Assembly: GCA_035638075.1 (NCBI GenBank)
Contig: DASRAU010000039.1
Coordinates: 7,010 to 71,009 of the forward strand
Source of the DNA: Verrucomicrobiia bacterium
Lineage (GTDB): Bacteria; Acidobacteriota; Polarisedimenticolia; Gp22-AA2
Direction: 5' to 3'
Length of the DNA stretch: 64,000 nucleotides
Every line of letters starts with the position of its first letter. Position 1 is the first letter of the stretch. The notes below the pieces were generated by a model. The model saw nothing but the letters and a program-made list of their open reading frames with translations, did no database searches and was not told the origin of the DNA. The translations under genes and the position numbers were made by a program. Shown here piece by piece: positions 17,728 through 56,890 of this stretch.

Positions 17728-19416
17728 ATGGACGACTTCCTCACGATCATCACCCCCGACGGCGGGACGCAGAAGTACGACCTGGGTCCGGCTCCCAACC
17801 TCAAGATCGGCCGCTCCTCGACGAGCGACCTGGTCCTGCAGGACCTCAACGTGTCGCGCATGCACGCCGAGCTGGTGCGGCGGCCGGAGGGGTACTTCGT
17901 CCTCGATGCCGGCGGGAAGAACGGCACCTTCGTCAACGACAAGCGGATCGACGAGCCGACGATGCTGCAGCCGGGCGATCGCGTCCGGCTCGGCACGACC
18001 ACCCTCGTCTTCAACGGCCACCCGAAGAGCAACGTCGAGTTCACCGACCAGCCGCTGCCGGCCGGGCCCGGCACCATCCATCTCAGCGCCGACGACCTGC
18101 GCACGCCGAACATCGCCGAGATGTCGGTCATCGTCGGCGGCACGCCGGCGCCCATCCGCACCACCGGACCGGGATCGTCCCCCTCCGGGGCGCAGGCGCT
18201 GTCGATCATCTTCGAGGCGGATAAAGAGCTGGTCTTCCACCGCCCGCTCGACGAGCTGCTGGAAAAGATCATGGACCTCGCGAAGCGCGCCGTCCGCTTC
18301 GAGCGCGGCCTGCTGATGCTGCTCGAGGGCGGGACGCTGCGCACGCACGTCGTGCGCGTTCCGGACGCCGAGACCGGCAAGCCCATCGCCATCAGCCGCA
18401 CCATCACCGACCGGGTGATCAAGTCGCAGGAGTCGATCCTCACCTCCGACGCGCTGTTCGACGAGCGCTTCAAGGCGGGCCAGAGCGTCGAGATCCAGCA
18501 GATCCGCTCGCTCATGTGCGCCCCGCTCTGGGACAACCGCGAGGTCATCGGGCTCATCTACCTCGACAGCCGTCAGAAGGCGGGGCTGTTCACGCTCGAC
18601 GATCTGAAGCTCCTGACGCATCTCGCCAACGTCGCCGCGGTGAAGATCGAGAACGCGCGGCTCTTCGAGCAGGCGGTCGCCGCCGAGCGCATGGAGCAGG
18701 AGATCCAGAAGGCGGCGGAGATCCAGAACCACCTCCTCCCCGCGGAGGGTCCGCCCATCCCCGGGTACGAAGTCTTCGGCACGAGCCTGATGTGCCGGGC
18801 CGTCGGCGGCGACTACTACGACTACGTGGCGCTCGGGGACGGGCGCTACGGGCTGGGCCTGGGGGACGTGGCGGGGAAGGGACTGCCGGCGGCGCTCTTG
18901 ATGGCCTCCTTCCAGGCCAGCCTGCGGGCGTTGTCGGAGATGGGGCTGCCTCCCGACGACACCATCCGCCGGCTCAACCGCCTGCTCTGTCGCAGCATCC
19001 CGGAGAACCGCTTCGTCACCTTCTTCTACGCCATCCTCGATCCGGCGACCCACGAGTTCACCTACGTCAACGCCGGCCAGAACCCGCCCTACATCGTGCG
19101 CGCCGCCGGCGGGACGGAGCGGCTCGACCAGAGCGGGCCGCCGCTGGCCCTGCTCGACGACGCCACTTACGTCGCGCACAACACGCGTCTCGAGCCCGGC
19201 GACGTGCTCGTCTGCTACAGCGACGGCATCAGCGAGGCGCGCGGCCCGTCCGAGGAGGAGTTCGGGGAGATCCGGCTGACGGACGCGGTTGCGAAGGACG
19301 CGGAGCGTGGGGCGCCGGAGCTGGTGCGCCTGGTGACCGAGGCCCTGCTGGCGCACTGCGCCGGGCGGGCCTACCAGGACGACGTGACCATCGTCGTCCT
19401 GAAGCGCAAGTCGTGA
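17728..19416 (+). CDS. FHA–GAF–PP2C (SpoIIE-type) Ser/Thr phosphatase
   Basis: N-terminal FHA domain (KIGRSSTSDLVLQDLNVSRMHAELV...NGTFVN), a central GAF domain, and a C-terminal PP2C (GDVAGKGLPAALLMA, YSDGISEA). Start at MDDFLT, in the same frame as track ORF 16945..19416. The upstream part of that ORF overlaps the cupredoxin gene. Confidence 0.85.
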   Translation: MDDFLTIITPDGGTQKYDLGPAPNLKIGRSSTSDLVLQDLNVSRMHAELVRRPEGYFVLDAGGKNGTFVNDKRIDEPTMLQPGDRVRLGTTTLVFNGHPKSNVEFTDQPLPAGPGTIHLSADDLRTPNIAEMSVIVGGTPAPIRTTGPGSSPSGAQALSIIFEADKELVFHRPLDELLEKIMDLAKRAVRFERGLLMLLEGGTLRTHVVRVPDAETGKPIAISRTITDRVIKSQESILTSDALFDERFKAGQSVEIQQIRSLMCAPLWDNREVIGLIYLDSRQKAGLFTLDDLKLLTHLANVAAVKIENARLFEQAVAAERMEQEIQKAAEIQNHLLPAEGPPIPGYEVFGTSLMCRAVGGDYYDYVALGDGRYGLGLGDVAGKGLPAALLMASFQASLRALSEMGLPPDDTIRRLNRLLCRSIPENRFVTFFYAILDPATHEFTYVNAGQNPPYIVRAAGGTERLDQSGPPLALLDDATYVAHNTRLEPGDVLVCYSDGISEARGPSEEEFGEIRLTDAVAKDAERGAPELVRLVTEALLAHCAGRAYQDDVTIVVLKRKS

Positions 19417-19442
19417 CCGCCGTCCGCGCCCCGGGCGCCGCG

Positions 19443-20615
19443 ATGAACGTCCTGCTCCTCGGGGTCGGCGCCGTCGGCAGCGTGCTGGCGCGCCACCTGG
19501 CGGCGCACCGCTCGGTCGGCCGCCTCACCCTCGCCGACCAGGACACCACGCGCGCCGCGCGGCTGCGCGACGAGCTCGTGGCGGCCGGCCCCGGACACCC
19601 CGATCGCCTGCGGGTCGAAGCCGTGGACGCCTCCGACCCTCTGGCCCTGGCGCGCGCCTGCCACGACCAGGGGCTGGTGATCTGCGCCGTCGTGCCGCGC
19701 TTCAACGGTGCGGTGATGGACGCGGCGCTGCGAGCCGGGGCCCACTACCTCGACCTGGCCGCGGGGGAAGACGATCAGTTCGTCCGCCACGAGGCGTGGA
19801 AGCAGGCCGGGCTCGTCGCCGTCAACGGCATGGGAGAGGACCCGGGGATCAGCAACGTGCTGGCGCGGGTCGGCGCCGACCGCCTCGACACGGTCGAGAC
19901 GGTGCGCGTGCGCGACGGCGAGTTCTCCGAGGCGGAGAACATGCCGCTGGCGTGCCTGTTCTCCACCGAGACCTTCATCGAGGAGGCGACCTCTCCCGCG
20001 CTGGAGTTCTTCGCCGGGCGTTATCGCGAGCACCCGGCGTGGTCCGGACGCGAGGTGTACCCCTTCCCCGACCCGGTCGGCCCGCAGCCGGTCTACAACA
20101 TGAGCCACGAGGAGGTGGACACGCTTCCCCGCTTCCTCGGCAAGGGCGTGCAGAACGTCGACTTCAAGCTGGCGGTGCCGGACGGCATGCGCGAAGCGCT
20201 CGACTTCCTGCACCGCATCGGCATGACGCGGCGCGACGAGGTGCCGGTCGGCCGCGCGCTGGTGCGCCCGCTCCAGGTCCTCTCTGCCGTCCTGCCGCAG
20301 CCCGCCGACCTGGGCGGACGGATCCAGGGAGCCGCCATCGTCCTCGTCGAGGTCGAGGGACGCAAGGGTCCGGCCCGGATGCGTCACGTCCTGCACATCG
20401 CCATGACGCATGACGAAGCCTTCCGGCGGATGCGCGCCACCGCGACCGCCTTCCTGACCGGCACGGGCGCCGCTGCCGGCGCGCTCGCCATCACGACAGG
20501 CCAGGTTGCCACCCCCGGAGTCCTGGCGCCGGAGCAGCTCGAGCCCGCGCCGATCCTGGCGCTTCTTTCCGAGCTGGGACTCGACGTCCGGGACACGTCG
20601 CAGACGCTCCCCTGA
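19443..20615 (+). CDS. Saccharopine dehydrogenase-like NAD(P)-binding oxidoreductase
   Basis: N-terminal Rossmann MNVLLLGVGAVGSVLARHL, then a saccharopine dehydrogenase-like C-terminal domain. A possible GTG at 19414 would overlap the upstream stop (GTGA). Confidence 0.8.
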   Translation: MNVLLLGVGAVGSVLARHLAAHRSVGRLTLADQDTTRAARLRDELVAAGPGHPDRLRVEAVDASDPLALARACHDQGLVICAVVPRFNGAVMDAALRAGAHYLDLAAGEDDQFVRHEAWKQAGLVAVNGMGEDPGISNVLARVGADRLDTVETVRVRDGEFSEAENMPLACLFSTETFIEEATSPALEFFAGRYREHPAWSGREVYPFPDPVGPQPVYNMSHEEVDTLPRFLGKGVQNVDFKLAVPDGMREALDFLHRIGMTRRDEVPVGRALVRPLQVLSAVLPQPADLGGRIQGAAIVLVEVEGRKGPARMRHVLHIAMTHDEAFRRMRATATAFLTGTGAAAGALAITTGQVATPGVLAPEQLEPAPILALLSELGLDVRDTSQTLP

Positions 20616-21358
20616 CCCGCCGTCTCGTTCGAGGTGCCGGCGACCGCGAGCTGCGCCGCCGCGCCCGTCGTGCGAAGACCGACACGCTCGACCGGGTCGC
20701 CGCGGACGTCGTCGCTTGCGAGCGCTGCCCGCGTCTGCGACGGTACTGCCTGGCGATCGCGCGCGACAAGGTACGCCGCCATCGTGACGAGGTGTACTGG
20801 GGACGTCCCGTGCCCGGCTTCGGCGACAGGAGTGCGCGGCTGCTGCTCGTCGGGCTCGCCCCCGCTGCGCACGGCGGCAACCGCACCGGCCGGGTCTTCA
20901 CGGGGGACGCGAGCGGCGACTGGCTCTTCGGCGCGCTGCACGAATTCGGCTTCGCGAGCCAGGGCACCTCGACCGGACGGGACGACGGCCTGCGCCTGAC
21001 CGACTGCTATGTCACCGCCTCGGCGCGCTGCGCCCCGCCCGACAACAAGCCGACCCTCGAGGAGCTGCGCCGCTGCCGGGAGTACCTGGTGCGCGAGCTC
21101 GCACTCCTGCGTCGCGTGCGCGTCGTGGTCCCGCTCGGCCGCGTCGGCTTCGAGTCGTACCTCAAGGCGGCCGGACACTGGGAGCGCATGACGCCCCGGG
21201 AGCGGCCGGTCTTCGGGCACGGCGCCGAGAGCGTGCTGCCGGACGGGACGATCCTCGTCGCGTCCTTCCACCCGAGTCGCCAGAACACGCAGACGGGGAA
21301 GCTGACGCGCGCGATGTGGCGCGACATCTTCCGCCGCGCCCGCAAGCACCTCGGTTAG
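20612..21358 (+). CDS. Uracil-DNA glycosylase superfamily, family 4/5 (UdgB-like, Fe-S) – start codon unresolved
   Basis: [37 protein letters not shown] carries the GLAPA motif, and SFHPSRQN is motif B. The conserved N-terminal Cys ligands ACERCPRL...YC lie upstream of the first canonical start (GTG 20792), in a frame that begins at a CTG overlapping the preceding TGA. Confidence 0.75.
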
Positions 21359-23748
21359 TCGAGCGCGACGTTCCGCAGCCGCAGCGCGTTGGCGATCACC
21401 GAGACCGAGCTGAGGGACATGGCCGCACCGGCGATCATCGGACTCAGGACCAGGCCGAAGGCGGGGTAGAGCGCCCCCGCCGCGATCGGCACGCCGAGCA
21501 GGTTGTAGACGAAGGCGAAGAGCAGGTTCTGGCGGATGTTCGAGAGCGTCGCGCGGCTCAGGCGCCGGGCGCGCAGGAGAGCCTGCACGTCCCCGGTCAC
21601 GAGCGTGATCCCCGCGGTCTCCATCGCCAGGTCGGTGCCCGTGCCCATGGCGACGCCGACGTCCGCCTCCGCCAGAGCAGGACCGTCGTTGATCCCGTCC
21701 CCCGCCATGGCCACGCGCCGGCCCTGATTCCGCCAGCGCCGCACGGCCCGGGCCTTGTCCTCCGGGAGGAGGCCGGCCTCGACGGTCTCGATGCCGAGAT
21801 GGCGCGCAACCGCGTGAGCGGTCGGGCGAGCGTCTCCCGTCAACATGACCACCTGCACGCCGTCGGCCTCGAGGGCCCGCACCGTCTGCGCACTGTCCCG
21901 GCGCGGCGGATCGGTGAACGCCAGGAGTCCGGCCGCGCGGCCCCCCGTGCCGAGGAAGACCACCGTCTCCCCCTCCGAGCGCAGGGCGGCGGCACTCCCC
22001 GCGAGCGCCTCGCCGACGTGGATTCCCTGCTCGTGCAGGAACGCTTCGGTGCCGAGAACGGCCCGCGTCCCGTCGATCTCGCCGACCACGCCGCGTCCCG
22101 CGTGCAGCGACAGATGCCGTGCAGCGACGGCCCGGAGGCCGCGCTCCTCCGCCGCCTGGAGCACCGCCGCGGCGAGCGGGTGCTCGCTCCCCTGCTCGAG
22201 CGCCGCCGCCAGGCGCAGCAGCGCCGCGTCGTCGGTCCCCGGGCCGGGTGCGCCGGTTGCATCGTGCAAGGGCTCGACACGGGTCAGGCGCGGCTTCCCT
22301 TCGGTCAACGTGCCCGTCTTGTCCACGAGCAGCAGATCGATGCGGCCGAAGAGCTCGAGCGCCGCGGCGTCCCGCACCAGGACGCCGGCGCGCGCGCCGC
22401 GCCCGGTCGCGACGAGGATCGACATCGGCGTGGCGAGGCCGAGCGCGCAAGGACAGGCGATGATGAGGACCGCGATGGCGGCGACGACCGCGTGCGCCAG
22501 CCGCGGCTCCGGTCCCAGCGTGGCCCAGAGGATCGCCGCGAGGAGCGCCACCGCCGCGACCGACGGGACGAACCAGGCCGAAACCCGGTCGGCCAGCCGC
22601 TGGATCGGCGCGCGGCTGCGCTGCGCCTCGACGACGCGCGCGACGATCCGCTGCAGCAAGGTGCCGGCGCCCACCGCCGTCACCTGAAACAGGAACGTCC
22701 CGCCCTGGTTCAGCGTCCCGGCGGAGACGCGCCCGCCGGGGCCCTTCTCGACCGGCAGCGGCTCACCGGTCAGCATCGACTCGTCCACGACGCCGTGCCC
22801 GGAGGTCACCAGGCCGTCGGCCGGGACGCGCTCCCCCGGCCGCACCCGCAGCGTGTCTCTCTCCTGCACCGCGTCGAGCGGCACGTCCTCCTCGGCGCCG
22901 CCGTCGCGCACGCGGCGCGCGCTCTTCGGGGCGAGCGACAGCAGCCCGCGCAGCGCCGAACCGGTGGCGCGCCGCGCGCGCAGCTCGAGCACCTGGCCGA
23001 GCAGGACGAGGGTCACGATCACCGCCGCCGATTCGAAGTAGACGTCGACCGCGCCGCCGTGACCGTGGAACGCCCGCGGCAGCCACGCGGGGACGACGGT
23101 CGCGACCAGGCTGTATCCGAACGCGGCGCCCGTGCCGAGGGCGATGAGGGTGAACATGTTCGGCGTGCCGCGCCGCAGCCCGTCCCAGCCGCGCACGAAG
23201 AACGGCGCCCCGCACCAGAGAACGACCGGCGCCGCCAGCGCCGCCTGCAGCAGAGGGGCTCCCCCGCCCGTCCACATCCCGAGCATCGCGATGAGGAAGA
23301 GCGGAGCGGTCAGCACCGCGGCAACGAGGAGCCGCCGGGTCATGTCGGCGAGCTCCGGATCGGGTCGGTCCTCGAGCGTCACCACCACCGGTTCGAGCGC
23401 CATGCCGCAGATGGGGCACGCCCCCGGGCCGCGCCGGCGGATCTCCGGGTGCATCGGGCAGGTGTACTCCTCCGCGTCCTGCCCGCGGGACGGCGGACGC
23501 GTGGAACGTGCCGGCGTGTGGTGAGCCGCGTGGCCGCGCGCCCCGCTCGACAGGACCGCTTCGGGATCGCGCTGGAACGTCTCGCGGCAGCCGTCGCAGC
23601 AGAAGTGGTACGTGCGGCCGCCGTGCAGGGCGCTCCCGCCCGCCGCGCGCGCCGGGTCGACGGTCATCCCGCACACCGGGTCGATGGCGCTCCGGCTGCC
23701 CGCCTCGTCCCCGCGGGTGTCCCGATTCTCCGCCGTCATGGCGCTCAT
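21355..23748 (-). CDS. copA: Copper-translocating P1B-type ATPase
   Basis: CPC transmembrane motif, DKTGTLT phosphorylation site, [10 protein letters not shown]. The N-terminus carries a YHS domain (DPVCGMTVD...YHFCCDGC) and a CPMHPE...CPICGM motif instead of a classical HMA domain. Confidence 0.93.
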
Positions 23749-56332: not shown

Positions 56333-56890
56333 TCAGTCGGCCCGGACGCGGGCCTGGCCGTCGACGATCTCGAAGGTGAACCGGACGTCGATGTAGACCG
56401 GGATCCGGTGGGAATCCACGAGGATGGTGTAGTCGGGCTTCGAGTCGTGGTCGAGATCCTCCCCGGGCTCGATCGTCCGGATGGCGGCGGGCACGAAGAT
56501 CCAGCTCAGGACGGCGTCCACCGCGGCCACCCTGAAATCCGGATCGGCCTGGGCGGCCGGAAGGGCGAGCGGACTGTCCTGGACTTGCCGGACCGCTCCG
56601 TCGGCCTCGACCACGAGGCGCAGGACCAGAACGACCGGCCGGCGCAGGTCCTGGTGATCGGCCGGAAACCGCGGCAGGGGGGTGACGATGGGATGGGGTG
56701 CGACGAAGTCCTGCCCCTCGCGGAGCTGCGGCGACACCCGGGACGGGTCCACGAGGTATTCGGCGCTGATCTGCGCGAGGGATGTCTCGTCCGGCGCGGC
56801 CGCCTTCCGATCCGGGACGCTGGCACATCCCGCCCCCCACACCAGGAACGCGACGACGGGCAGAAGCCGGAAGGGAGACGAGACGGGCAT
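56333..56890 (-). CDS. Hypothetical lipoprotein
   Basis: Lipobox GAGC after a hydrophobic leader. No domain recognised. Confidence 0.5.
   Translation of the reverse strand: MPVSSPFRLLPVVAFLVWGAGCASVPDRKAAAPDETSLAQISAEYLVDPSRVSPQLREGQDFVAPHPIVTPLPRFPADHQDLRRPVVLVLRLVVEADGAVRQVQDSPLALPAAQADPDFRVAAVDAVLSWIFVPAAIRTIEPGEDLDHDSKPDYTILVDSHRIPVYIDVRFTFEIVDGQARVRAD

Follow-up and report, generated by a model that had tools for sequence, protein, structure and literature searches.

We describe a family-5 uracil-DNA glycosylase (UDG; UdgB) gene whose coding sequence very likely begins at a CTG codon. It lies in a 64,000-nucleotide (nt) stretch of contig DASRAU010000039.1 (assembly GCA_035638075.1, positions 7,010 to 71,009), which we call the window and to which all coordinates refer. 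The host is an uncultured soil acidobacterium, the G+C content of the window is 70.6%, and the gene and its coordinates were read from the window sequence. The proposed CUG initiation codon (20612-20614, plus strand) is part of a 4-nt stop-start overlap, CTGA (20612-20615), formed with the TGA (20613-20615) of an upstream saccharopine-dehydrogenase-like (Sacchrp_dh) gene, and termination-reinitiation is a reasonably probable route of initiation at this codon. CTG starts and coupling through NTGA overlaps are each known; this locus unites both in a new gene family and a new phylum.

The UDG frame (positions equal to 2 modulo 3) is open between a TGA at 20411-20413 and the TAG at 21356-21358. 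An initial annotation had stated that the frame carries no stop over 20615-20791 and no ATG, GTG, or TTG before the GTG at 20792; both statements hold, with the absence of canonical starts reaching back to 20414, and translation of the frame returned the upstream protein sequence as it had been written there. The overlap of the CTG with the upstream TGA can be read directly from the sequence, 20611-20615 being C-CTGA. Before GTG 20792, CTG 20612 and CTG 20651 are the only alternative starts in this frame under translation table 11. The open reading frame (ORF) reported by gene-calling software starts at that GTG and has 188 amino acids (aa), excluding the CxxC pair and the N-terminal helices. 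In this frame, the conserved residues under selection have no canonical start ahead of them.

When read from CTG 20612, the frame encodes 248 aa followed by the TAG stop (20612-21358, plus strand), and by alignment this product is likely to be a complete family-5 UdgB with all four iron-sulfur cysteines and a predicted glycosylase for uracil, hypoxanthine, and similar bases in double-stranded DNA. It matches PF03167 in Pfam, and among solved structures it comes closest to the Thermus thermophilus family-5 UDG 2D3Y (E 1e-59 over residues 32-245), with the alignment beginning at residue 9 of 2D3Y, which faces DVVAC (about 20705). Family-4 structures match weakly (E 1e-6 to 1e-7 vs. 1e-59), and the NCBIfam family-4 models score far under their cut-offs (57.7 vs. 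125.3 and 55.1 vs. 250). Motif A is of the GLAPG/GLAPA type (GLAPAAHG, 20852-20875) and aligns to GLAPGAHGSNRTGRPFTGD of 2D3Y, the family-4 GE(A/G)PG being absent, and motif B is of the H(P/V)SRQN type (HPSRQN, 21269-21286) and likewise aligns with 2D3Y. The same motifs, GLAP(A/G)AHG and H(P/V)SRQN, and the four cysteines are shared with TthUDGb (PDB 2D3Y, 2DDG, 2DEM, and 2DP6), from which the window protein differs in having about 23 additional Arg-rich N-terminal residues and a non-canonical start.

Cys36 and Cys39 (20717 and 20726; CxxC, 20717-20728) and Cys140 and Cys155 (21029 and 21074; 21029-21076) all face Cys in 2D3Y. Their role as ligands of the [4Fe-4S] cluster comes from the literature on the family, our own contribution here being the alignment, and all four are included only if translation begins upstream of 20717. 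The initial annotation had placed an Fe-S motif of three cysteines upstream of the GTG; the CxxC pair stands, whereas the third (Cys46, 20747) has no conserved counterpart in the Thermus enzyme, and the remaining two ligands, Cys140 and Cys155, lie downstream of the GTG. Calling the motif essential was also too strong, given that a family-5 UDG of Sulfolobus keeps about 60% of its activity, though it loses stability, when 46 residues are removed from its N-terminus (PMC5295032). The case against a truncated UdgB must therefore rest on conservation; Pfam is unable to reveal such a truncation, with PF03167 beginning after GTG 20792.

Relatives of the locus (numbered with the prefix L) were obtained through protein and contig searches and come from soil and sediment metagenomes and from a metagenome-assembled genome (MAG) of Candidatus Polarisedimenticolia, a class of Acidobacteriota. 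The contigs were separately assembled, L003 coming from ENA, L004 from a GenBank MAG, and L084, L085, L089, L169, and L170 from JGI. The syntenic block consists of a FHA-GAF-SpoIIE phosphatase gene, the Sacchrp_dh gene, and the UDG gene, followed in many by a convergent Cu-ATPase gene, and the order of the first three genes is found again in L001, L164, L165, L171, and L172. An in-frame CTGA at the upstream stop is present in the window and in ten relatives (L001, L002, L003, L004, L084/85, L086, L089, L164, L169, and L170; 81-94% amino-acid identity to the window), so that 11 distinct sequences share the CTG at the orthologous position.

The spacer from this CTG to the first Cys measures 35 codons in the window and 34, 47, 17, 17, 22, 14, 20, 37, 14, and 22 codons in the ten relatives, giving eight lengths (14, 17, 20, 22, 34, 35, 37, and 47 codons), every one of them in frame. 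Spacer length has thus changed no fewer than seven times, in each case by a multiple of three; the extension of L003, for instance, carries a 12-codon in-frame insertion. Seven of the 11 sequences (window, L003, L004, L084/85, L089, L169, and L170) have no canonical start at a plausible distance before CxxC, meaning none before it at all or none within more than 200 codons. L084/85 and L169 offer no table-11 start besides the CTG of the CTGA, which in L169 is the sole such codon across an entire open stretch of 75 codons. Comparison of orthologous start codons showed that the closest orthologs lack an ATG or GTG at the equivalent position of the kind that would imply an indel in the window, and the clade does not lack the N-terminal Cys motif.

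Whole-gene ratios of nonsynonymous to synonymous substitution (dN/dS) against the window are 0.08-0.21 at dS 0.37-0.85, from which we regard the UDG relatives as well-diverged, functional genes. Within the 36-codon block around CxxC (from -11 to the codon before the equivalent of GTG 20792), there are 13, 11, and 27 variable sites at codon positions 1, 2, and 3, respectively, and a 12-residue block containing CxxC is invariant in the 11 sequences though the DNA varies. Further upstream, the Arg-rich N-terminal extension (20615-20716, plus strand), which varies in length among the relatives through in-frame variants, contains the motif (L/I)(V/T)R.AG(D/S), common to the window (with RGAGDR at 20630-20647), L003, L004, L164, L089, and L086. 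Its Arg codon is CGA, CGC, CGG, or CGT and its Gly codon GGC, GGA, GGG, or GGT, so that these codons vary at the wobble position only across six lineages, a pattern that only translation in the UDG frame would be expected to yield. Because this codon-wise variation is found two to five codons after the CTGA and upstream of all canonical starts, including those of L086 (GTG at -7) and L164 (GTG at -14), translation should enter the frame at or immediately after the CTGA, and in this sense the comparison shows the frame to be translated from that point. We see the motif as a small lineage-shared element in an Arg-rich UdgB N-terminus of variable length (14-47 codons). As judged from the sequences compared, the conservation of the CTGA, the maintenance of frame, and the coding signature together exceed what chance would be expected to produce.

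The sister lineages L168, L171, and L172, which have the same upstream gene and 72-73% identity, carry a TTGA overlap at the same junction. L171 begins TTG-AAT-CGG-CGC-CTC (LNRRL), to be compared with CTG-AAC-CGC-CGT-CTC (LNRRL) in L004 and LTRRL in the window, and LTDSLDAL of L168 corresponds to LTDTLAKV of L084. By this alignment, the window CTG is shown to be the ortholog of a canonical TTG start, from which it would differ by a T-to-C change. L087 has an ATGA at -17. As a control, in L165-167 a 40-nt spacer precedes a separate ATG of the UDG gene, and the CTGA found there is out of frame. The window itself holds three further CTGA junctions with coding signal on both sides (56335, minus strand; 59431, plus strand; and 28311, minus strand). 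Two of these are CTGATG, that is, canonical TGATG overlaps, and the one at 56335 has an in-frame ATG (56275) 60 nt downstream; since these junctions have canonical starts, a CTGA by itself is no evidence for a CTG start. A crude scan of ORFs and junctions based on G+C content at third codon positions, which has low sensitivity, found no other non-canonical start in the window, all long open stretches before first canonical starts being accounted for by neighboring genes.

In the mechanism that we propose, the ribosome would terminate at the UGA of the Sacchrp_dh gene, remain on the messenger RNA (mRNA), and restart on the overlapping CUG with initiator tRNA, which mispairs there at the first codon position, as it does with GUG and UUG. 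Initiation at the CUG would be with formylmethionine, and reinitiation would take the place of de novo binding of the 30S subunit. No GGAGG-type Shine-Dalgarno (SD) sequence, nor GGAG or GAGG, occurs 5-12 nt upstream of the CTG, where the sequence reads gcagacgctccc; the sole SD-like sequence nearby is GGGAC, about 18 nt upstream. Coupling is to be favored over de novo initiation because the CTG has no SD at a useful distance and CUG alone is weak, at 1-2% of the AUG level in Escherichia coli (10.1101/063800). For the same reasons, UdgB output would be expected to be low, as well as linked to translation of the upstream gene, and low expression may be the selected outcome. The same 4-nt architecture is seen elsewhere in the window, as had been noted in the initial annotation; junctions of this kind are GTGA 19413, ATGA 58323, and ATGA 48868 (minus strand). 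An SD within the upstream gene is frequent in this architecture, though it is not required; GGAGG precedes both ATGA junctions, and the GTGA has no SD. A variant of the mechanism involving RNA unfolding is unsupported, as 20560-20700 folds less stably than its shuffled counterparts (z = +1.14), and the region 20300-20900 gave no Rfam match at E <= 1.

Several points weigh against this interpretation. In four of the 11 CTGA sequences, a GTG further downstream (at -7 or -14) is a possible alternative or additional start. The C preceding the TGA serves at the same time as the third position of the upstream gene's last codon (CCC, TCC, or CTC), and its conservation alone carries little weight because C is common at that site in a 70% GC genome. 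The relatives also stand near one another in phylogeny, so that the counts overstate their independence. Base composition by codon position does not clearly separate the frames in the extension, where it is uninformative because the Arg-rich sequence distorts it. Finally, reinitiation and direct initiation at the CUG are inseparable by computation.

Among the alternatives, a start at another non-canonical codon after the CTGA, such as CTG 20651 or ACG 20684, would give a shorter protein that keeps the CxxC. CTG 20651 is in frame and 22 codons before the first Cys, and homologs usually begin 12-22 codons before it, the Thermus enzyme doing so 12 residues before. We nevertheless find this improbable, given that the codon is CTC in L003 and L004, that the RGAGDR motif with its wobble-only variation lies upstream of it and implies an earlier start, and that L084/85 and L169 would be left with no table-11 start at all. 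From the GTG at 20792-20794, translation would yield a 188-aa glycosylase that lacks both the N-terminal helices and two of the cluster ligands; no canonical start precedes this GTG in the frame, and the shortened Sulfolobus enzyme is partly active in vitro (PMC5295032). In every homolog, however, the equivalent codon specifies an internal Val or Glu (Val in the window), and the 60 codons before the GTG are conserved as protein in lineages that have no canonical start, with third-position variation dominant and with neither stops nor frameshifts. Purifying selection on this segment leads us to reject the truncated, clusterless glycosylase that the initial annotation had listed among three explanations, and a start at this GTG is very improbable. 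Its second explanation, a sequencing indel, taken here as any sequencing or assembly indel in 20580-20720 that hides a canonical start in another frame, can point to GTG 20634 in the +2 frame, but is scarcely credible: six other distinct sequences without a canonical start, assembled independently and from different samples, show the same architecture, their base changes and in-frame indels are of the type found in coding regions, and all length differences are multiples of three. The explanation that gains support, from the in-frame CTGA in 11 sequences and the sister TTGA, is CTG-initiated or reinitiated translation, the reinitiation step being our interpretation.

A programmed -1 frameshift in the last part of the upstream gene (e.g., by Pro-tRNA on C_CCC_UGA) would require no separate initiation and would produce a Sacchrp_dh-UDG fusion. 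The UDG frame is indeed the -1 frame of the Sacchrp_dh gene and is open over the junction, and CTC-CCC-TGA lets CCC re-pair one base back. The codons before the stop are not consistently slippery, however (TCC-TGA in L002, L089, and L086; CTC-TGA in L164), no X_XXY_YYZ heptamer occurs in the last 26 codons (the limit being set by an in-frame stop in L002), and the region has neither an unusually stable downstream structure nor an Rfam match, as given above. In sister lineages, an ordinary TTG or ATG start occupies the corresponding site, and the best 120 homologs are 196-300 aa long and carry PF03167 only, which speaks against a fusion; we therefore hold frameshifting to be quite improbable. 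A +1 frameshift at CCC_TGA was also considered and rejected; it enters the wrong frame (the 20634 ORF, ending at 20999).

Initiation at the CTG within the overlap can be set beside systems that are already known. The NTGA overlap is the commonest coupling architecture (review, PMC12548453), and termination-reinitiation has been proposed for NTGA gene pairs (Huber et al. 2019, PMC6728339; PMC12548453). The window locus resembles such pairs in that the genes are co-directional, with a 4-nt overlap in which TG is common to the downstream start and the upstream TGA. It differs in that N is C, which makes the restart codon a non-canonical CUG rather than ATG, GTG, or TTG and the junction a variant of the architecture, in that there is no SD at normal spacing, and in that the coupling is only proposed from the sequence. 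CTG is a recognized but rare start codon in bacteria, and its documented uses include those of RepA of an E. coli plasmid and of rpsL and Deide_03051 in Deinococcus (PMC2830850). As in these genes, related genomes retain the CTG, the conserved residues are not preceded by any canonical start, and the start is recognized through homology, essential elements of the fold being otherwise missing. The differences are that all or some of the documented cases are supported by peptides, whereas the present one is known from sequence comparison, that the CTG here lies inside a stop-start overlap, and that both gene family (UdgB) and phylum (Acidobacteriota) differ from theirs.

A more distant likeness is to the AUU start codon of infC (IF3), a regulatory weak start codon. 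The two have in common a conserved, weak, non-canonical start that probably sets a low or regulated level of expression; codon and context differ, and nothing here points to autoregulation. The AUU start of infC is likewise mentioned in PMC2830850.

The CTGA arrangement extends beyond the immediate relatives. Among 153 distinct UdgB loci compared, 19 offer no canonical start in the interval 8-60 codons ahead of the first Cys, and an in-frame CTGA is found in 14 of these 19 vs. 13 of the 134 others (Fisher p = 6e-9, uncorrected for phylogeny). Among the 14 are loci of Vicinamibacteria type, outside the Polarisedimenticolia clade, that follow other upstream genes. In L013 and L132, the CTG is 16 codons before the Cys and the upstream Lys/Ala-rich gene ends in ...KKKTGTEG and its stop, and in L037 and L039, it is 23 codons before the Cys, following a Lys/Ala-rich gene that ends in ...AAGGKRR and its stop. 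L013, which has no canonical start, contains a second CTG at -14, where close relatives show ATG (MRDSLARV...). The arrangement therefore recurs beside three different upstream genes, namely Sacchrp_dh and those ending in ...TGTEG and ...GGKRR.

Three further loci, L160 (Cys codon at position 376), L117 (238), and L123 (925), encode an intact full-length Vicinamibacteria-like UdgB and have neither a canonical start before CxxC nor a CTGA. L160 has zero table-11 starts over the 63 open codons from the upstream stop to CxxC, and all that L117 and L123 offer is ATC, ATT, or a GTG lying two codons ahead of the Cys. In L160 and L117, an upstream TAG stop occupies the exact site of the ATG of homologs (-14/-13). 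These three loci, the position of the TAG, and the recurrence of CTGA beside three upstream genes hint that, in these Acidobacteriota, reinitiation is largely indifferent to the restart codon or that start-codon discrimination is relaxed across the lineage, a speculative reading to which we give little credence. If it were true, UdgB genes would be expressed from CUG and even from codons that are not start codons.

The main practical consequence concerns automated annotation, and we do not claim that this case opens a new field. Standard gene callers accept ATG, GTG, and TTG only and consequently truncate UdgB. Public gene calls P0003, P0005, and P0025 (for L003, L169, and L170) begin at an internal GTG after CxxC and are 196-199 aa long, and P0001 and P0002 (L001 and L002) begin past the CTGA, at a GTG that precedes the Cys by seven codons. 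Such annotations could mislead the researcher toward clusterless UdgB enzymes in this clade. A CUG start within a stop-start overlap would be a comparatively well-supported natural case, with the TTGA orthologs serving as internal controls, and the locus could be used to test how far termination-reinitiation tolerates weak start codons. It would also fit the idea that potentially mutagenic DNA glycosylases are kept at a low level and tied to a neighboring gene.

The upstream gene (19413-20615, plus strand) contains Sacchrp_dh_NADP and Sacchrp_dh_C domains (PF03435 and PF16653), with the C-terminal domain match ending about 11 residues before the stop (Pfam). It starts either at GTG 19413, in a GTGA overlap with the FHA-GAF-SpoIIE gene, or at ATG 19443, the latter giving a protein of 390 aa, as in L001 and L165. 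The GTGA junction (19413-19416) has coding signal on either side, the FHA-GAF-SpoIIE phosphatase gene ending at 19416, and the FHA-GAF-SpoIIE, Sacchrp_dh, and UDG genes may form a chain of coupled ORFs. A terminator-like hairpin on the plus strand (20547-20572; hairpin itself 20547-20562), GCGCCGATCCTGGCGC then TTCTTTCC, lies within the Sacchrp_dh coding sequence 50 nt before its stop; it is probably due to chance, the T-run not being kept in L001 or L004. At the other end of the UDG gene, the TAG (21356-21358) overlaps by 4 nt the 3' end of the convergent Cu-ATPase gene (21355-23748, minus strand), and a tail-to-tail overlap of these two genes likewise occurs in L001, L002, and L165.

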